In this document: in pieces, positions 3,196 through 53,106 of the stretch
How the letters are laid out: every line of letters begins with the position of its first letter
Position numbering within the stretch: position 1 is the stretch's first letter
Assembly: GCA_964612055.1 (NCBI GenBank)
Contig: CAZTBI010000004.1
Location: forward strand, 1-58,844
Origin: an uncultured Bdellovibrionales bacterium
GTDB lineage: Bacteria; Patescibacteriota; Minisyncoccia; Moranbacterales; UBA1568
DNA: 58,844 bases
Reading direction: 5' to 3'
Notes under the pieces: model-generated
Database searches by the model: none
Told to the model about the DNA's origin: nothing
Seen by the model: only the letters and a program-made list of their open reading frames with translations
Translations under genes and position numbers: made by a program

Positions 3196-3287
3196 AAAGG
3201 ATGTCAACTCTCATCCTTTATTTACTCTATATATAGAGTATTCCAAACAAAAACGGGAAAAAGCCTCTATAAAGCCAATATATTGGA

Positions 3288-45429: not shown

Positions 45430-45458
45430 ATAGTAGCAGGAGCAATCACTGAAATCAA
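45430..45458 (-). promoter_or_regulatory. sigma70 promoter of the T-box/ileS transcript
   Basis: TTGATT-N17-TACTAT with TGn, placing the start just before stem I. Confidence 0.65.
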
Positions 45459-46159
45459 CCCCTGATACCAACTTTTTTCACGACAACGGAAAAGCGCTCC
45501 ACTAATCCCCGCATCTCTTCATTCGAAAAAGAATGGTACGTTGCGAAAAGCGAATCAAGGGTGTGGCCTGGCCGGAACGTCTGGAGATAGTAACGCTTAG
45601 CACCAGAAAGCATCTCTTCCATATCTTTTAGAACTTTTTCATTATGAATCTCCTTGATCAGCGTGGTTCGGAACTCATAGGGAATACCAGATGCTTTCAG
45701 TAGCCTGATACTCTCTTCGATATTCTCTGGCTTCACCGTGCCACCAACCAATTTCGGATATTCGGCAAGCGAGGTCTTTACATCCATGGCCACATAATCG
45801 ACCAACCCCTGATCGAGAAGTACTCGCAACATCTCCGGATGATTGCCGTTGGTATCGAGTTTTGTGAGAAACCCCTTTTCCTTGATTCTCCGCAGAAACT
45901 CCGGCAGGTCACGCCAAATGGTCGGCTCGCCCCCTGATACCACCACCCCTTCCAAAAGCCCGCGCCGCTTGTCGAGAAAATTGAAAAATGCTTGCTCCTC
46001 GATGAAGTCAGCCTGCAGTTCCTGGATCTTTGCCGGCAGCACGAACTCCGGATTGTGGCAAAAGCCGCAACGCATATTGCACCCAGGAGTGAACGCGATA
46101 CACGCTACCCTTCCTGGGTAGTCGAGCATCGTGAATCGTTGGATAGCTGACAGCTTCAT
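45455..46159 (-). CDS. nrdG: Anaerobic RNR activating radical SAM enzyme
   Basis: GCNMRCGFCHNP (CxxxCxxC), SGGEPT, KLDTNG; adjacent to nrdD. Confidence 0.93.
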   Translation of the reverse strand: MKLSAIQRFTMLDYPGRVACIAFTPGCNMRCGFCHNPEFVLPAKIQELQADFIEEQAFFNFLDKRRGLLEGVVVSGGEPTIWRDLPEFLRRIKEKGFLTKLDTNGNHPEMLRVLLDQGLVDYVAMDVKTSLAEYPKLVGGTVKPENIEESIRLLKASGIPYEFRTTLIKEIHNEKVLKDMEEMLSGAKRYYLQTFRPGHTLDSLFATYHSFSNEEMRGLVERFSVVVKKVGIRG

Positions 46160-46350
46160 GCCTGGCCGTACTGCTTGGTGAAGACGGTATTGTCAGCTAC
46201 ACACTCCTCGAAATGTTTGCGCGAGTAATGCTCAGCCTTCTTGCCGATATTGAAGTGGGAGACGGGGCGATGATAGCCCATAACCCGGGTCCACACTTCA
46301 CAGCGGGTGCGCTTCTCGTTTCGTTCTGCTTGTATTTCTGTCTGCGTCAT
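46156..46350 (-). CDS. Stand-alone glycyl-radical domain of class III RNR (64 aa)
   Basis: RCEVWTRVMGYHRPVSHFNIGK is the NrdD C-terminal radical loop. Confidence 0.88.
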   Translation of the reverse strand: MTQTEIQAERNEKRTRCEVWTRVMGYHRPVSHFNIGKKAEHYSRKHFEECVADNTVFTKQYGQA

Positions 46351-46386
46351 AGATGTAGGGTTATATTTGTTAACTTGGTTGAAAGA

Positions 46387-48501
46387 CTATTTCTCAGCCG
46401 CGGTACTGGCGTAGGTCTTGCGATAAGTCTCGTCGAAACGTTCCCCACTGAGTCCTAGCTCCGTATCACACTTGGGACAAAAGTCATACTCACCGGAAAG
46501 ATAACCGTGTTTCGGGCAGATGGAGAATGTCGGCGTGATGGTGATATATGGCAATCGGTAACGAGTGAGGATTTTTTTCACGAGATTGCGGCAGGCTTCA
46601 GGCGTCGAAATCTTCTCGGTCATGTAGCAATGAAGCACCGTTCCACCCGTATACTTGGTCTGAAGGTCATCCTGCAAGTCGAGCACTTCGAAGACATCGT
46701 CCGTATAGCCCACTGGTACCTGGGAAGAGTTGGTGTAGTATGGCGCATCCGCAGTCCCGGCCTGAAGGATCTTAGGGAAACGCTTCTTGTCTTCCTTGGC
46801 GAAGCGGTAGGTCGTCCCTTCAGCAGGTGTCGCTTCCAGGTTATAGAAGCTCTTGGTCTCTTCCTGGAAGGATTTGATCTTCTCCTGCATATGAACCAGT
46901 ACTTCCAGGGCAAAAGTATGTCCCCAATCGGTCGTGATATTCTCCTTGTCGTCGGTGAAATTCCGGATCGCCTCGTTCAGGCCGTTGATCCCGATGGTCG
47001 AGAAATGATTCTTCAGGTAGCCCAAGTAGCGCTTGGTGTACGGGAAGAGTCCCCGGTCGATCCATTCTTGAATCACTTTGCGTTTGATCTCCAGTGACGT
47101 CTTGGCAAGCTCCATCAAGTGGTCGATCTGGGCATAGAACTTTTCCTTGTCACCTTTGGTAAGATAACCGATGCGAGCCGCATTCAAGGTCACTACCCCG
47201 ATGGATCCCGTCATCTCGGCCGAACCAAAGAGCCCGCCACCGCGCTTGCGCAGTTCCCGCAGATCGAGCTGCAGCCGGCAGCACATGGAACGGACATCGC
47301 CCGGATTGAGACTGGAATTCACGAAATTCTGGAAATACGGCGTGCCGTACTTGGCCGTCATCTGAAACAGCGGCAGATTCTTCTCACTCTCCCAATCGAA
47401 GTCCTTGCCGATATTGTAGGTCGGGATAGGAAAGGTGAAGGCTCGTCCCCTGGCATCGCCCTGGCTCATCACCGCGATGAAGGCCTGGTTGACGACATCC
47501 ATCTCGTGTCCCAGCTCACCAAACGTATACGCGAATGGTTTTCCGCCGAGAAGCAACCGTTTTTCTTTCAGGTCTTCCGGACAGTCCCAGTCGAGCGTGA
47601 TATTGGTGAACGGCGTCTGCGTCCCCCAACGCGAAGGGATGTTCAAGTTGAAAACAAAGGACTGAAGGTTCTGATAAACGTAGGCGTATACCTCGTCCTC
47701 GATGTATTTCTCTTTCGCTTCGTCCGAGATGAAGATCATGCCGTGCCTCTCCATATTCTCACGGAGCTCCAATTCGTACTTCTTCACGAAAGGTGCCATG
47801 TAGGTATCGAAACTGGAAAATGCCTGAGCTCCGGCCCACTCGTTCTGGAGCGTCCCCAAGAAGTTCACCATCTGCGACACAGCTGATGAGAGGTGCTTCG
47901 GAGGGCCGGACTCCACCTTGTTGTCGACACCGTTGAAACCTTCTTCGAGAAGCACACGGAGGCTCCAGCCGGCGCAGTAACCCGAGAACATGTCGAGGTC
48001 GTGGATGTGATAGTCGCCGTTGCGATGCGCCTCCCCAACGCTCTTCGGATAGATATGCGACAACCAATAGTTGGCGATGACGGAGCCTGCTGTATTCAGA
48101 ATGAGTCCGCCGAGCGAGTAGCCCTGATTGGAATTAGCATTGACGCGCCAGTCTGCTCGATTGAGATAATCAGCCACCGTCTTTTCTACCTCGACCACCA
48201 CATTCTTATCTGCTCGAGCCTCCCGACGTTTCTCACGATAGAGAATATAGGCTTTGGCCATCTCGGCATAGTCATAGCGGATGAGCACATCCTCCACGAC
48301 ATCCTGGATCTGCTCGACGGTTGGAATCTGATCGCTATACATATCTTCAAGCTCTACTTCTACTTCTTTGACCAATGTCTCAGGAATCACCTGATCCAAA
48401 TACCCAACTGCCTGTGCGGCCTTGACAATAGCATTCTTGATTTTCCCCAAATCAAAATCAACAATGGCTCCATTTCTCTTCTGTACTTTGTAGAGCGGCA
48501 T
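46387..48501 (-). CDS. nrdD: Class III anaerobic ribonucleotide reductase large subunit with ATP-cone, lacking the glycyl-radical loop
   Basis: KVQKRNG ATP-cone, HIHDL, RSMCCRL, NLEATPAEG, C-terminal CPKHG...CPKCD. Confidence 0.93.
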   Translation of the reverse strand: MPLYKVQKRNGAIVDFDLGKIKNAIVKAAQAVGYLDQVIPETLVKEVEVELEDMYSDQIPTVEQIQDVVEDVLIRYDYAEMAKAYILYREKRREARADKNVVVEVEKTVADYLNRADWRVNANSNQGYSLGGLILNTAGSVIANYWLSHIYPKSVGEAHRNGDYHIHDLDMFSGYCAGWSLRVLLEEGFNGVDNKVESGPPKHLSSAVSQMVNFLGTLQNEWAGAQAFSSFDTYMAPFVKKYELELRENMERHGMIFISDEAKEKYIEDEVYAYVYQNLQSFVFNLNIPSRWGTQTPFTNITLDWDCPEDLKEKRLLLGGKPFAYTFGELGHEMDVVNQAFIAVMSQGDARGRAFTFPIPTYNIGKDFDWESEKNLPLFQMTAKYGTPYFQNFVNSSLNPGDVRSMCCRLQLDLRELRKRGGGLFGSAEMTGSIGVVTLNAARIGYLTKGDKEKFYAQIDHLMELAKTSLEIKRKVIQEWIDRGLFPYTKRYLGYLKNHFSTIGINGLNEAIRNFTDDKENITTDWGHTFALEVLVHMQEKIKSFQEETKSFYNLEATPAEGTTYRFAKEDKKRFPKILQAGTADAPYYTNSSQVPVGYTDDVFEVLDLQDDLQTKYTGGTVLHCYMTEKISTPEACRNLVKKILTRYRLPYITITPTFSICPKHGYLSGEYDFCPKCDTELGLSGERFDETYRKTYASTAAEK

Positions 48502-48538
48502 ACGTTTTCATTACTATAATTACTGTCGAATACAATCA

Positions 48539-49144
48539 CTAGCAACCAAACTGGCCTTCCCCACAGGGAGCGGGAAGTTCTTTGGCTATCGGGATGCCAG
48601 GGGCACTTCCACTTATTACATATTCTTCTGGCTTGGTAATCGCCCACTCATGCTCGTGATTCCATGTCTCCCACCCGTACCGCCATTCGTTCCACCCAAT
48701 ACCCAGGTGCTTCACATAGATATCTTGTTCGGCAAGCATGAGGCCAATTTTTCTCCCTGTCATACAGGCCGTGCTGTAACAGTAGACAATAATATCTTTC
48801 TCTTTCGGAAGTGCCTGAAACTGACCAATGATACGCTCTTCCTCATCATAAGCGCTTGTATCTGGATCGCTATATGCTGGAATATTCACCGCTCCGACAA
48901 TATGCTCTTTCTCATACTCCACCGCACTCCGCAAGTCCACAAGTATAAAGCTCTTGTCCTGCTTGTCCATAAGTTTGCGTAAACCATGGGGACTGACTTT
49001 AACAGCATTTTCTACCCGGTAGTATTCGGCTATAGCATCTTCTTTCACTGGAGTCTTGAAACGCTCGGAAAGGAGTACTATATTTCCTCCCAGTAAAATA
49101 CCAAACAACACCGATACCCCCACTAATTTGATCTGCTCATTCAT
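48539..49144 (-). CDS. Membrane-anchored rhodanese-domain protein
   Basis: N-terminal TM; DLRS..EY...HI.GAVNIP, IVYCYSTAC, LGIGWNEW. Start trimmed to MNEQIK. Confidence 0.85.
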   Translation of the reverse strand: MNEQIKLVGVSVLFGILLGGNIVLLSERFKTPVKEDAIAEYYRVENAVKVSPHGLRKLMDKQDKSFILVDLRSAVEYEKEHIVGAVNIPAYSDPDTSAYDEEERIIGQFQALPKEKDIIVYCYSTACMTGRKIGLMLAEQDIYVKHLGIGWNEWRYGWETWNHEHEWAITKPEEYVISGSAPGIPIAKELPAPCGEGQFGC

Positions 49145-49188
49145 AACAATATTTCTAAGGATTACGAGAAATACTCTACATACTTTAT

Positions 49189-49216
49189 AAACACTAAAAA
49201 CAAAAAAAGGTGTCAA
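49189..49216 (-). promoter_or_regulatory. Bipartite motif TTGACACCTTTT-N9-AGTGTTT upstream of rhodanese-nrd unit
   Basis: Same motif recurs upstream of nirK at 51638-51666. Confidence 0.55.
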
Positions 49217-49226
49217 GACGACACCT
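49201..49226 (-). terminator. Terminator after PAS-ECF gene (overlaps the motif)
   Basis: AGGTGTC-GTCTT-GACACCT followed by a T run. Confidence 0.7.
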
Positions 49227-49253
49227 AAAGATCACGTGCAAGGTTTCTTCTCC

Positions 49254-50336
49254 TTAATTCCAAGCTTGTTTGATTTTTTTGCGCGTTCGACTCAAAATCA
49301 ATTTTACAGCATTTTCTGTCTTCCCTACCTGCTTGGCAATCTCTTTCACTTTGAGATCCTGCTCGTACCTCAGGAGCATAATCTTTCTTTCCATTTCAGA
49401 AAGAGGGGCCAAAAGATACCCTATGTTCCCACCATCTAACCCTGCCTGTTCGTCGAAGAGAGAGAGTGCTCGTTCGTCAGACAGAGGGAGGGTATCACAC
49501 TTTTTTTTGCGGTAGTAATTCACTAAAACACTATGACTCACTCGGAGAAGATAGGTATAGTAAGAAGCGTTCGTAATCCGAAATGAAGGGAGATAGCGGA
49601 AAGCCCTGGCAAATACTTCCTGATTCAGATCCTCAGCCAAAGCCTGATCCCCTCCAAGACGCCGTAAAAAATACTTCTGAAGGGTAGAGTAATATTTTTC
49701 ATAGAGCCGAGAGAAGTGTTCTGGATTTTTTTGAGCAGCCTGAATCAAAGGTGCATCCTCAAAACGTCGGAAAAGTACTTGCTCAGTAGGAGCAATCAAT
49801 TCTTCATAGAAGAACGTGACAGGATTAATGATAGTCTCGCTAAGAGACGAGGTACCCGGTACTAGTACGCCGTCTTTCTTTTTTCGTAGAGCATCAAAAA
49901 CCCAAACAAGCGTTTGACTGTCTGTATGAAATTTCTTTGCCTGTGATAAGAAAGATCGAACAAACGACTGAGACTCTTTTTCTGTCACAAACTCTGGATG
50001 AAAGGCAGCAAAATAACGAGTCGTTCCTGTCTCATCCTTGAGAGGGGCAATGCAAAGTAAATCTTCTTGGAATTGTCCGTTTTTTTTCACGTTCTGTACC
50101 ATGCCCACAAAAGGCCTCCCTTCTGTATCAATAGTTTTCCACAATAACTGATAAAATTCCTTGTTCATGTGACCACCCCAAAGTTCCCCTGGCTTCTTCC
50201 CAACTATCTCGGCCAAAGAAAATCCCGTACGTCGCTCAAAGGCACCGCTCACATACACCACTCGCGATGAGATATCGGTGATTAAAAGCCCGCCCGGTAA
50301 TATATCAAGGACTTGTTTGAATGAAGGGGAAGTCAT
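49254..50336 (-). CDS. PAS domain fused to an ECF sigma factor
   Basis: N-terminal ITD..YVS.AF...TGFS..EIVGKKP...FYQ.LW.TI (PAS); C-terminal AEDLNQEVF.RAF, YL.R.....LVNYYRK (region 2), LS..ER.I..LRY......EIA...G.....VK..LSR (region 4). Confidence 0.9.
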   Translation of the reverse strand: MTSPSFKQVLDILPGGLLITDISSRVVYVSGAFERRTGFSLAEIVGKKPGELWGGHMNKEFYQLLWKTIDTEGRPFVGMVQNVKKNGQFQEDLLCIAPLKDETGTTRYFAAFHPEFVTEKESQSFVRSFLSQAKKFHTDSQTLVWVFDALRKKKDGVLVPGTSSLSETIINPVTFFYEELIAPTEQVLFRRFEDAPLIQAAQKNPEHFSRLYEKYYSTLQKYFLRRLGGDQALAEDLNQEVFARAFRYLPSFRITNASYYTYLLRVSHSVLVNYYRKKKCDTLPLSDERALSLFDEQAGLDGGNIGYLLAPLSEMERKIMLLRYEQDLKVKEIAKQVGKTENAVKLILSRTRKKIKQAWN

Positions 50337-50382
50337 AGTGAAAACTTTCTCCCTATCATATCACAATCACCAAAATCACAGA

Positions 50383-51603
50383 CTAGTGACCGCTGTGTAC
50401 GCTAGGATTTACTGTTCCAGAAAAAATGTCTGGTCTTTCGGCTCCAGAAACGGTGAGCACCCCCCAAGCACCCCTATCTGCCCGAGTCAGAGCATGATCT
50501 ACCAAAATATAGTCTCCGGGTACCTCTGGAACAAACTCCATGATGCCAGCTCCGCCCGGCGGGATAAGGGTGGTTTGGATATTGTGATGCAGATCACTCC
50601 CAATACCACCTTCCGGATAAACAGTATCAAAAATTTCTCCAATAAGATGGAAAGATGATACTAAATTTACTCCACCATTTCCAACAAAGAAGCGTACCGT
50701 TTCTCCTGTTTCCACCTTCATGTTCCGAAGCAAAGAATGGATCTTGCCGTTAAAGAAAATATACTGTGGATGACTATCAAGCATAGCTTGACCATCAAAG
50801 ACTTGCATTCCCTTCTTACCAAGATTTCCTTTGGTATACATCTCCCCTTGCATGATATAAAACTCTTTGTCCACTTTTGAGAGACCCTCCTTTGGTTCCA
50901 CGAGAATCATTCCGTACATTCCATGAGCCATATGAGTAGCTACATTGGTCATGGCGCAGTGATAGACATACAGCCCTGGGTTGAGTGCTTGAAAAGAAAA
51001 AGATTTGCTCTCGCCAGGAAGCACTGTGGTTACCCCTGCTCCCCCGCCCGGCCCAGTCACCGCATGAAAATCTACATTATGAGGATGAACACTTGTTTCG
51101 TGGTTCTTCACGGTCACCTCTACTTGATCACCCTCCCGCACCCGGACAAAGGGTCCAGGGACTTTCCCATTAAATGTCCAGGCATTCATAAAAATCCCGG
51201 GGGCAATTTCCGTAATAACTTCTTTAGTCTCAAGATTGACCCGTACCACTTCTGCGTGATCACGTTCTAGAGGTGCCGGGATATCATTTGGATCATATGA
51301 AATATTACCTACTCGTTCAAAATCATTAAAGTTTTTGAAAAATCGTACCATATGGTCTAGATGAAATGAGGGAGGAATGCCAGGTCCAAAGGTAGTCATA
51401 AACAGAGGGTACTCCATTGTATTAGGAAGTACCTGAGCAGAAAAATAGAAGATGCCCATTCCTACTAAGAAAAGAGTCGTAAAGAACATCCTTGTTTTAG
51501 TAATAAAAAAAGACCGAAAAAATCCAACAACACCTCCTAGCGCCAAAATGATACCAACAATCTGCAAGACTAAAACTCGAAAAAACTGGAGAAAAGAACC
51601 CAT
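50383..51603 (-). CDS. nirK: Copper-containing nitrite reductase with two N-terminal TM helices
   Basis: FNGKVPGP, HNVDFH, YHCA...ATHMAHGMYG, SSFHLIGEIFD, VDHAL: type 1 and type 2 Cu ligands plus catalytic D/H present. Confidence 0.93.
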   Translation of the reverse strand: MGSFLQFFRVLVLQIVGIILALGGVVGFFRSFFITKTRMFFTTLFLVGMGIFYFSAQVLPNTMEYPLFMTTFGPGIPPSFHLDHMVRFFKNFNDFERVGNISYDPNDIPAPLERDHAEVVRVNLETKEVITEIAPGIFMNAWTFNGKVPGPFVRVREGDQVEVTVKNHETSVHPHNVDFHAVTGPGGGAGVTTVLPGESKSFSFQALNPGLYVYHCAMTNVATHMAHGMYGMILVEPKEGLSKVDKEFYIMQGEMYTKGNLGKKGMQVFDGQAMLDSHPQYIFFNGKIHSLLRNMKVETGETVRFFVGNGGVNLVSSFHLIGEIFDTVYPEGGIGSDLHHNIQTTLIPPGGAGIMEFVPEVPGDYILVDHALTRADRGAWGVLTVSGAERPDIFSGTVNPSVHSGH

Positions 51604-51637
51604 ATTTAAAAGGTTAAGAATAAATCTCTATAAAGAG

Positions 51638-51666
51638 AAACACTTTTCTTACCCAAAAGGTGTCAA
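51638..51666 (-). promoter_or_regulatory. Bipartite motif TTGACACCTTTT-N10-AGTGTTT upstream of nirK-PAS/ECF unit
   Basis: 19 nt shared with 49189-49216. Confidence 0.55.
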
Positions 51667-51668
51667 AG

Positions 51669-51702
51669 AAAAAAGCGGCTGGGATCAATGATCCAAACCG
51701 CT
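51669..51702 (-). terminator. Terminator after SLT-like gene
   Basis: AGCGG..GGATC-ATT-GATCC..CCGCT followed by a T run. Confidence 0.7.
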
Positions 51703-51708
51703 CGGTTG

Positions 51709-53106
51709 CTAGCTGCGCCGATGTAATCGCTCGTACCGGCCGAGGTGCGTCCAGTTGCTGACGCATTTCTTGATATAGCCGATGGTCTCGTACTTGAGCA
51801 CCGCTCCCTTGCTCTTGATCCAAGCGATGAACTCCTGCCACGGGAAGGAACCAAAAGCCAGGTGCTTGATCTTCTTGAGATCACCATACTCCACCACTAG
51901 CCGAGCGAGTGCCTTGGCTTGTGACGGTCCGCCATTATAGGCGGCGGCCGGAAACAACAGACCCATCTGGTGATCATCCATGAAGGCTTCCCGTACCCAA
52001 TCAGGTACTCCCCGGGAAGACAGTTCGTAATCGGTCAGGACCGCCGCCGCTTTGACGCTGTTACGAAAACCGCGCGTCCCTCGTTTGAAGTCCGGATCAA
52101 GCTCTGCCAGCGGATAGGCGAGACGCATGGCCTCATAGGTACCCGGGCCGTATTTCCCGTTCTTCTGCCTGACCCGGTTGTTGGTGAACTGGTACGCTCC
52201 GCAAGCTGCTGCGCCCGAGCAGATGTAGCGATAGGCATCAAGACCGTTTATCACGAACTCGGTAAGTACTGCATCTACCACCTGCTCATCTCTCTCGTAG
52301 AGACGTTTCGGCAAAAGCCTCTCACATCCCGGCTCACGCTCTTGGAGCAGACAAGGATCTGTCTGTTCCGTGACGAGGAGATTGAGAAGAGCTCCTGATG
52401 AAACCACATCAGCCACCAACTTGCCCGGATAAGCATCCGAAGGCACTTGCTTCTCCCGAAGCTCGCCCAAGGCCTCTTCGATGGCACGCAAAGCGATGTT
52501 CTGCCCTTGTAGAGCAAACCCTTCATTAGCCAGGTACGGCGGCGTGGCCAGATAGACCACTGCCTCCGCCTCCTGATTCATAATCCTGACGTCCTTCGAA
52601 CGGAACACTGGCGGTACAGAAAGATGTTTCGCCGCATAGACCCGCAGCTCTCGGCCATCCATCGTCACCTCAAAGACCATCTTATTGAACGTCTGACCCT
52701 TGATGCGGATCACCTGGTACGGTGGATCATGCTTGGTACGGATGTTCGGCTGGAACACATCATCACCGACAAGCGGCATGTCGAGCACGATCTTATGGAA
52801 ACCGTCCGTTTCCGGGTCGTACACAACGAGTCCGAATTCACGACGGATACTCCTTTTGCCGATCATTGGCTTTCCGTTCTTGCCGAGATACCGCTCGACA
52901 TTCTCGAACACCTGAAGCGGAATTCTTTCCGCCAAAGACCGGGCTTCACGAAGCTTCCGGCACACGTCGACACGCTGTACGAACGCCTCACACGAAGGCA
53001 GTTTTGTGGCTCGTTCCTGCTCTATCCTCCGTTGGTAATCGATATTCCCCGCCAGCACCTGAGTGGCACTGAGGCAGAGAGCCGCAAGCGTTACAAAGAA
53101 CTTCAT
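51709..53106 (-). CDS. Secreted lytic transglycosylase/lysozyme-like protein
   Basis: CAAGGAG SD, signal peptide MKFFVTLAALCLSATQVLA, LVTEQ (candidate catalytic E), SGAAACGAYQF, AAYNGG, ETIGYIKK. Confidence 0.7.
   Translation of the reverse strand: MKFFVTLAALCLSATQVLAGNIDYQRRIEQERATKLPSCEAFVQRVDVCRKLREARSLAERIPLQVFENVERYLGKNGKPMIGKRSIRREFGLVVYDPETDGFHKIVLDMPLVGDDVFQPNIRTKHDPPYQVIRIKGQTFNKMVFEVTMDGRELRVYAAKHLSVPPVFRSKDVRIMNQEAEAVVYLATPPYLANEGFALQGQNIALRAIEEALGELREKQVPSDAYPGKLVADVVSSGALLNLLVTEQTDPCLLQEREPGCERLLPKRLYERDEQVVDAVLTEFVINGLDAYRYICSGAAACGAYQFTNNRVRQKNGKYGPGTYEAMRLAYPLAELDPDFKRGTRGFRNSVKAAAVLTDYELSSRGVPDWVREAFMDDHQMGLLFPAAAYNGGPSQAKALARLVVEYGDLKKIKHLAFGSFPWQEFIAWIKSKGAVLKYETIGYIKKCVSNWTHLGRYERLHRRS

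Follow-up and report, generated by a model that had tools for sequence, protein, structure and literature searches.

Between nirK, which encodes a copper-containing nitrite reductase, and nrdD, which encodes a class III ribonucleotide reductase (RNR), the contig CAZTBI010000004.1 of an uncultured patescibacterium carries the gene of a sigma factor of the extracytoplasmic function (ECF) type with an N-terminal PAS domain, here referred to as PAS-ECF. We analyzed positions 1 to 58,844 of this contig (58,844 nucleotides [nt]), referred to as the window. A bipartite motif, TTGACACCTTTT-N10/N9-AGTGTTT, stands once ahead of nirK and once ahead of the unit that contains nrdD, which raises the question of whether it is a promoter and, if so, which sigma factor reads it. 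The comparisons presented here indicate, with a probability that we put at roughly 85%, that the motif is a promoter recognized by RNA polymerase with the adjacent PAS-ECF sigma factor. We read it in this way because the motif is conserved in orthologous loci, is present or absent together with the sigma gene, is replaced by sigma-A promoters where it is missing, and covaries with the sigma factor in a manner that fits the structure of sigma-E.

Results

Two copies of a bipartite motif

Both copies of the motif lie on the minus strand, and none is found elsewhere in the 0.94-Mb genome. A preliminary description of the locus had reported 12+7 identical nucleotides, spacers from TTGACA to GTGTTT of 17 nt (copy 1) and 16 nt (copy 2), and ends that lie 34 and 44 nt before the start codons; these values and the coordinates proved to be correct for the minus strand (Table 1). 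The pattern TTGACA-N14-19-GTGTTT matched twice in the window, with 0.06 matches expected, and two matches were reached in 0 of 100 shuffles. The two copies were also the only matches to TTGACACC-N12-16-AGTGTT in the whole 941,749-bp genome, in which the backwards control of this pattern had no match. With 0.06 matches expected per window and no third match in the genome, the bipartite pattern is not a chance pair. As the preliminary description had noted, no sigma-70-type -10 element (TAnnnT) occurs at the right distance at either copy, and a consensus scan placed no sigma-70-like promoter over them; the sequence found at that distance is GTGTTT or TGTTTA.

Conservation of the motif in orthologous loci

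The PAS-ECF family was reached by an alignment-based scan, while a scan of the contigs with the single protein gave only two distant ECFs. A full-length PAS-ECF is encoded in 17 of 36 congeneric genomes, and in all 16 congeners whose contig extends beyond the gene it lies directly upstream of nrdD-orf64-nrdG, a synteny that holds across other lineages of the candidate phyla radiation (CPR) too. Each of these 16 congeneric loci has GACACCTTTT...GTGTTTA between the sigma gene and nrdD; the intergenic DNA reads GACACCTTTT(T-rich)GGTGTTTA and is usually preceded by GGTGTC, with which it forms a terminator hairpin. The family genera g23, g28, and g33 have the motif at the same place, as do loci whose titles name Magasanikbacteria, Uhrbacteria, Nomurabacteria, and Paceibacteria and whose sigma factors are 32-40% identical to that of the window. 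Among the 78 named loci with a complete 3' end, nrdD is the next gene in 68, and the motif is present in 68/68 of these, with sigma proteins that are 32-58% identical and an intergenic consensus of xTGACACCTTTT...GTTTA.

The spacer is nearly fixed, with N17 in 60 sites and N18 in 11 sites between GACAC and GTT across the named loci, and with GACAC-N17-GTTT in 35/41 and N18 in 6/41 sites of a collection of 41. In columns of this collection that were not forced by the search, a T precedes GACACC in 36/41 sites, TT is conserved after CCTT, GT precedes GTTT (39/41 and 38/41, respectively), and an A follows GTTT in 37/41. The limits of the element given in the preliminary description therefore require revision: its bipartite layout stands, but the conserved parts are not the TTGACA hexamer and AGTGTTT; they are xTGACACCTTTT, with the G of GACACC as the -35 position, and (G/C)(T/C)GTTTA. 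The motif follows its target and not the sigma gene: in one genome (G193), where an inserted gene separates the sigma gene from nrdD, it is found next to nrdD, with another terminator ahead of it.

In L172 and L173 (Magasanikbacteria), PAS-ECF is followed by a GGTGTC/GACACC terminator with a T tract and then by the gene of a small membrane protein, with no GTTT at N17 and no nrdD, and the site may be degenerate or rewired. Loose pattern matches in L234-L236 were discarded as chance since they are intragenic, that of L234 lying within the coding stretch ...DTFLGVPFNIASY... (our own translation), and matches in G199 and G213 were discarded likewise, being unlike the consensus. Many records of metagenome-assembled genomes with a PAS-ECF locus are labeled "uncultured Bdellovibrionales," "Gammaproteobacteria," or "Planctomycetia"; these labels look wrong, and the contigs belong to the family of the window genome.

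Co-occurrence with PAS-ECF and replacement by sigma-A promoters

Seven congeners have nrdD (78-80% identical) but no PAS-ECF, and the motif is absent from 7/7 of them. Their nrdD genes instead have an NrdR box (ACACTATATGTAGTGT) overlapping a canonical TGcTATAAT promoter, and the homologous stretch holds only decayed remnants, such as GATACCTTTTTC...AGAGAAA and GATACC.... In a family-wide pattern scan, all consensus-like T-rich matches fell in PAS-ECF genomes, counting G205, for which PAS-ECF was confirmed separately. More generally, nrdD, the ferric-reductase gene described below, and nirK bear TGnTATAmT sigma-A promoters where the motif is absent. Because a housekeeping promoter takes the place of the missing motif, its behavior is that of a promoter, not of an operator superimposed on a promoter. 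Co-occurrence, adjacency, and residue-base covariation together link it specifically to its cognate sigma factor.

Covariation of a sigma residue with a promoter base

The crystal structure of sigma-E region 4 with the -35 element shows that G-35 is read by R176, that F175 (F or H among group IV proteins) makes contact with the T across from A-33, and that the G across from C-31 is read by R171 (R or K); a G region, AAC, and a T tract make up the element (PMC1540707). hhalign pairs R171, F175, and R176 of RpoE with K345, S349, and R350 of the window protein, and the register of the motif is G(-35)A(-34)C(-33)A(-32)C(-31)C(-30)T(-29)TTT. G-35 and C-31 are invariant in the motif, as are R350 and K345 in the sigma factor, and the motif has C at -33 where the sigma factor has Ser. 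Only the sigma factors of L200, L205, and L209 have His at this position (...KLHLHRGRK), and only their sites read TGAAACC, whereas the sites of about 68 other sigma factors, which have ...LSR(A/T/S/G)RK, read TGACACC. The covariation falls on exactly the residue-base contact predicted by the sigma-E structure, and Ser in place of Phe/His at the F175 position would explain the loss of the "absolutely conserved" A at -33. Compared with published ECF promoters (PMC1540707, PMC6648896), whose -10 has a short GTC/GTT/CGT core, the composition is of the ECF type, with GACACCTTTT (GAAACC in 3 loci) at -35 and (G/C)(T/C)GTTTA at -10, the triplet being mostly CAC and not AAC.

Alternative readings of the motif

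A perfect TTGACA is present in each of the window copies, and the -10 region of part of the genus, GTGTTTAAT, is similar to TG plus TTTAAT. The motif might thus be taken for an ordinary sigma-A promoter in which TTGACA is the -35 and the -10 is unusual or extended (e.g., gTG-TTTAAT), particularly as TTGACA is enriched 4.9-fold upstream of the genes of this genome. However, TATAAT (7.2-fold) and TATACT (6.6-fold) complete the list of the most enriched upstream hexamers, from which we take sigma-A to be canonical in this genome, and there is no TAnnnT at 17±1 nt from the TTGACA hexamer of the motif. TTGACA itself occurs in just 3/41 sites, most reading ATGACA, GTGACA, or CGACA, and TTTAAT would need a 19-nt spacer and is absent from the window copies, from genera g28 and g33, and from the Uhrbacteria (GTTTAGAAG, GTTTGGGAG). 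In addition, the invariant CC-TTTT and GTTT play no part in sigma-A recognition, and a canonical TGnTATAAT stands in where the motif is missing. We consider this reading very improbable. A marginally less remote idea is that the motif is a real ECF-type promoter but is read by one of the three other ECF-like sigma factors of this genome (open reading frames [ORFs] at C2:55219, C2:162057, and C1:441400), with PAS-ECF being a mere neighbor. Against it, 68/68 loci from several CPR lineages link the motif to a PAS-ECF gene that is both present and adjacent, the motif is absent from congeners that lack PAS-ECF and still have ECF-like genes, and the S349H change sits in PAS-ECF itself.

The preliminary description had also considered an ACAC...GTGT operator, which as a palindrome ACACC-N13-GGTGT could serve a separate dimeric regulator (NrdR-like or a redox repressor) and overlap the real promoter. 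Most sites do have ACAC/GTGT inverted repeats, the genome encodes NrdR, and group-2 congeners and genus g33 have genuine NrdR boxes a short way upstream of the motif. However, the palindrome is not maintained in the right half, which reads CACGTTT, ACCGTTT, TGCGTTT, GCGTTTG, or TTGTTTA in many loci; the flanks are asymmetric (TG-ACACC-TTTT versus AA-ACAC), and sites differ by 1 nt in their spacing. The intergenic regions are short, with no more than about 30 nt between GTTTA and ATG in some, and have no other promoter, and the covariation is with a residue of sigma region 4. NrdR was rejected as the binder of the motif: although nrdR exists (C3:81144-81584), its box is a different 16-bp palindrome (ACACTATATATAGTGT; acaCwAtATaTwGtgt), for which no match with ≤3 mismatches was found near nrdD in this genome. 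The operator thus appears as unlikely as the sigma-A promoter. Finally, copy 2, like most nrdD sites, has a GGTGTC/GACACC hairpin with a U tract behind it, and GACACC could also pair with a downstream GGUGUU, so that the element might act at the RNA level, either as a terminator only or as a terminator/antiterminator switch in which GACACC pairs with GGUGUC or GGUGUU. Yet the 5' arm GGTGTC, present in most relatives, is dispensable, being absent from the nirK site, the ferric-reductase sites, L039, and genus g28, where GACACC and GTTTA persist. For the internal inverted repeat of copy 1, the fold is not better than that of shuffled sequence (z = -0.25), many loci have CACGT or the like in place of the downstream GGTGT, and an Rfam search of positions 48400-51800 gave no family and one chance U6 match below threshold. 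Of all the alternatives, we regard this one as the least probable.

Recognition by PAS-ECF remains the preferred reading, although several points weigh against it. The nirK copy reads GTTTC and not GTTTA, as do four nrdD sites in relatives. The sites were gathered with regular expressions that fix GACACCTT and GTT(T), which inflates the information content of those columns. The absence calls for PAS-ECF may include false negatives, as the first filter of the search missed G205, and independent gain or loss events are few. Similarly, the Ser/His covariation is probably one evolutionary event, the three sigma factors with His looking like one clade. The three further ECF-like sigma factors of the genome formally still count as candidate readers, and for the wider model discussed below, it is likeness in sequence that points to sensing of O2 or redox state by the PAS domain.

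A single NrdR-box-like palindrome (ATACCATATATGGTG, ACACTATATATAGTGT) lies directly 5' of the hairpin and the -35 element in L035-L041, L123-L130, and L222 (including the group-2 congeners and genus g33), which suggests a dual control by NrdR and PAS-ECF in those relatives. In the window, a palindrome with 2 mismatches to the NrdR box (ACTCTATATATAGAGT, positions 3224-3239) lies just upstream of a TTGACA...TATAAT promoter; it was dismissed as an RNR-linked box, as the gene behind it (3118-545, minus strand) encodes an 857-amino-acid (aa) tetratricopeptide repeat protein and not an RNR. Within the nrdD leaders of L035-L041, L079, L082, and L084 lies a conserved hairpin that resembles a terminator and has a T run (e.g., GACGCTTCAGGGGAGGTCGTTTTTTT). 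Both group-2 congeners and congeners lacking PAS-ECF have this hairpin, which is possibly an attenuator; the window has no equivalent of it.

Predicted regulon

A genome-wide scan, suggested in the preliminary description, returned the exact motif only at the two window sites, and a weight matrix built from relatives only ranked copy 2 as the best site of the genome (30.9 bits) and copy 1 as the second (27.2 bits). The third-best site (GTGACACCTTTTGGAGAAAATAAACGTTTA; 21.0 bits; G000:C1:103945, minus strand) lies 34 nt before the gene of a 268-aa Ferric_reduct (PF01794) membrane protein. Orthologues of this gene are preceded by the motif in G002, G013, G015, G020, and G034, where there is no hairpin arm and the spacers are not T-rich, and by a TGnTATAmT sigma-A promoter at the same place in G004, G005, G006, G016, and G019.

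nirK is present in 10/107 family genomes. In the PAS-ECF genomes G034, G211, G215, and G216, it stands at the end of the motif-driven nrdD operon, and it has sigma-A promoters in G030 and G223, which lack PAS-ECF. The identity of the window gene is indicated by a match to TIGR02376 (332.6 bits versus a cutoff of 296.3) and by its Cu-oxidase domains. The gene of a rhodanese-domain protein, which separates the motif from nrdD in the window, does so in G208, G215, and L222 too. The conserved target is nrdD, with nirK and the rhodanese gene being accessory.

The PAS-ECF protein and its own promoter

PAS-ECF consists of a NifL/MmoS-like PAS domain (residues 1-115), a helical linker, sigma region 2 (about 205-281), and region 4 (about 305-359). 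Pfam matches cover Sigma70_r2 (211-279) and Sigma70_r4_2 (307-355), with no region 3 match, and TIGR02937 scores 70.5 versus a cutoff of 42.9; regions 2 and 4 without region 3, joined by a linker of <50 aa, are as expected for an ECF. hhalign of E. coli RpoE against the PAS-ECF family gave a probability of 98.6%, and the best sub-threshold NCBIfam match was the BldN-family model. In a confident AlphaFold model (predicted local distance difference test score of 84; predicted template modeling score of 0.64), the PAS domain and the helical linker are followed by regions 2 and 4, between which lies a disordered loop. For residues 5 to 126, the best sequence matches in the PDB are the PAS1 domain of NifL and a PAS domain of MmoS (2gj3 and 3ewk; E = 9e-12 and 7e-11, respectively). 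The family appears to be confined to Patescibacteria.

As the preliminary description had noted, ECF genes are often autoregulated through bipartite -35/-10 motifs, a trait that is frequent in the family but does not define it. For PAS-ECF, the data do not bear this out. The PAS-ECF genes of all relatives have a sigma-A-type extended -10 upstream (TGGTATGAT or GTGTATGAT) and lack the motif there; cATGGTATGATg or gTGTATGATAg precedes the gene in 17/17 congeners examined, and the window retains such an element (Table 1). Autoregulation is not the conserved logic of this sigma factor. No terminator was found in the window between nirK and the PAS-ECF gene, and the sole possible feedback there could be read-through from nirK, which could add a positive loop peculiar to the window genome. 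In several relatives (L026, L028, L029, and others), the extended -10 TGGTATGAT lies just 6-8 nt before the ATG, a distance that implies an mRNA without a leader, whereas 18 nt separate the two in the window. No anti-sigma gene was found near PAS-ECF. Since PAS-ECF is made from a housekeeping promoter, its activity must be controlled posttranslationally.

Organization of the locus

Every gene of the region is on the minus strand (Table 1). The hairpin behind the PAS-ECF gene has the properties of an intrinsic terminator; the -35 element of copy 2 serves as its 3' arm, and the T-rich spacer as its U tract. The double role of the second copy as a terminator arm, which had been proposed earlier, is thus confirmed by the fold. 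A longer, TTG-started rhodanese ORF reaching 49216 is considered an artifact: its TTG belongs to the motif (TTGACACC), and homology favors the ATG at 49144, with orthologues aligning from residue 1 of the 201-aa version. NrdD is split (46156-46389), the 704-aa protein matching the NRDD profile only to position 529/562 and the 64-aa product of orf64 holding the last 31 profile positions with the glycyl-radical end. The split is kept in every relative examined.

Table 1. Features of the PAS-ECF locus in window coordinates
Feature	Position	Strand	Remarks
Histidine phosphatase gene	53765-53196	-	
Gene of 489-aa secreted protein	53178-51709	-	Strong terminator at its end
Intrinsic terminator of 489-aa protein gene	51669..51703	-	Directly 5' of copy 1; hairpin at about 51703-51674, -18.3 kcal/mol, z = -4.7, then UUUUUU
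Motif copy 1	51666-51638	-	TTGACACCTTTT-GGGTAAGAAA-AGTGTTT; ends 34 nt before ATG at 51603
Copy 1 as predicted PAS-ECF-dependent promoter of nirK	51638..51666	-	
Copy 1, predicted -35	51664-51658	-	GACACCT; T tract on to 51655
Copy 1, spacer	up to 51642	-	GACAC-N18
Copy 1, predicted -10 core	51641-51638	-	GTTT; next base C
Copy 1, predicted transcription start	near 51629-51627	-	
nirK	50383..51603	-	Copper-containing nitrite reductase, 406 aa; first gene behind copy 1
Sigma-A-type extended -10 of PAS-ECF gene	50355..50363	-	TGATATGAT; between nirK and PAS-ECF
PAS-ECF sigma factor gene	49254..50336	-	360 aa; domains in the text
Intrinsic terminator of PAS-ECF gene	49198..49226	-	Hairpin AGGTGTC-GTCTT-GACACCT and run of 7 T; -10.1 kcal/mol, z = -5.4
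Motif copy 2	49216-49189	-	TTGACACCTTTT-TTTGTTTTT-AGTGTTT; to 49188 with final A of GTTTA; ends 44 nt before ATG at 49144
Copy 2 as predicted PAS-ECF-dependent promoter of rhodanese-nrdD-orf64-nrdG	49188..49216	-	
Copy 2, predicted -35	49214-49208	-	GACACCT; spacer N17
Copy 2, predicted -10	49192-49188	-	GTTTA
Copy 2, predicted transcription start	near 49181-49179	-	
Rhodanese-domain protein gene	48539..49144	-	Membrane anchored, 201 aa; first gene behind copy 2
nrdD-orf64-nrdG	45455..48501	-	Conserved target operon
nrdD	48501-46387	-	704 aa
orf64	46350-46156	-	Separate glycyl-radical C-terminus of NrdD
nrdG	46159-45455	-	Activase

Discussion

The data presented here support the bipartite ECF target promoter proposed in the preliminary description, through orthologue conservation, co-occurrence, promoter replacement, and covariation. 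In the mechanism that we propose, region 4 of PAS-ECF would read GACACCT(TTT) as the -35 element, following the group IV pattern of an upstream G, an "AAC"-type triplet (here CAC), and a T tract, and region 2 would read (G/C)(T/C)GTTTA as the -10 element 17-18 nt past GACAC. In this genome, PAS-ECF would drive three units, namely, nirK, rhodanese-nrdD-orf64-nrdG, and the gene of the ferric-reductase-like membrane protein on contig C1. The sigma gene itself would be transcribed from its housekeeping extended -10 and end in its own terminator. Because the 3' arm of this terminator is at the same time the -35 element of the nrdD promoter, a constitutive synthesis of the sigma factor would be insulated from the signal-dependent transcription of its targets.

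We infer a one-component sigma factor responsive to O2 or redox state, whose activity would be gated by the flavin adenine dinucleotide (FAD)-type PAS domain; targets that are oxygen sensitive or anaerobically used fit this view. Such a system would be a one-polypeptide functional analogue of FNR for anaerobic genes. The full model is put forward tentatively, and we give it slightly less than an even chance: PAS-ECF would be a Patescibacteria-confined, O2- or redox-sensing sigma factor in one polypeptide that is gated by a NifL-like flavin PAS domain, uses the private promoter GACACCTTTT-N-GTTTA, and switches on class III RNR and, where present, nirK and a heme-type ferric-reductase-like protein, thereby replacing FNR/ANR control in these minimal genomes.

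Little is known about transcriptional regulation in CPR bacteria, which cannot be grown alone, and the results offer a concrete, testable regulon with a defined sigma factor, a promoter code, and targets in oxygen-free DNA precursor synthesis and nitrite reduction. They also suggest how such streamlined cells could perceive oxygen or redox state through one fused protein. The pairing of Ser with C at -33 and of His with A at -33 provides a natural specificity pair for the rules of region 4/-35 recognition and could be developed into a new orthogonal sigma-promoter part in synthetic biology. A -35 element that overlaps a terminator 3' arm makes for a compact arrangement, which may be common to small genomes in general. 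In the ECF literature searched, we found neither a PAS-fused ECF nor a sigma factor controlling nrdD in CPR bacteria, although the supplements of the ECF reclassification paper may contain such a listing, and the sigma-promoter pair, conserved across many CPR bacteria, is without an earlier description in that literature.

Similar to group IV promoters such as those of E. coli sigma-E (GGAACTT/GTC; PMC1540707, PMC6648896), the motif has bipartite -35 and -10 elements with a 17- to 18-nt spacer, a -35 composed of an upstream G followed by an xAC triplet and a T tract, and a short G-T-pyrimidine -10 (GTT here versus GTC). An Arg (the R176 equivalent) and a Lys/Arg (the R171 equivalent) reading G-35 and C-31 are likewise shared, as is a small regulon adjoining the sigma gene. 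Unlike in sigma-E promoters, the "absolutely conserved" A-33 is C here (GACAC) and is matched by Ser instead of Phe/His at F175. PAS-ECF further differs from the sigma-E type in not being autoregulated in most genomes, in the absence of an anti-sigma gene nearby, and in the use of a -35 element that doubles as the 3' arm of the terminator of the sigma gene. In the latter lack of an adjacent anti-sigma gene, and in having an extra domain as the likely regulator, it resembles ECFs with fused extensions (ECF41, ECF42, SigC/ECF36, and BldN/ECF121; PMC7826278), but the extension of PAS-ECF lies at the N terminus, measures about 200 aa, and includes a bona fide PAS sensor domain. No PAS-fused ECF is described in the main text of the ECF reclassification or in those of the reviews searched.

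In model bacteria, the nrdDG and nir genes are under FNR/ANR-type and NrdR control. The predicted target set, class III RNR and nitrite reductase, both anaerobically used, is common to those systems and the one described here, and NrdR boxes coexist with the motif in some relatives. Unlike FNR or ANR, which act as activators or repressors at a site on a sigma-70 promoter, PAS-ECF would use a dedicated alternative-sigma promoter, and there is no TTGAT-N4-ATCAA box. Finally, the PAS domain is most similar in sequence, among PDB entries, to NifL PAS1 and the MmoS PAS domain, which are FAD-binding redox sensors; unlike in these proteins, where PAS is joined to a kinase-like or anti-activator module, it is fused here to a sigma factor.

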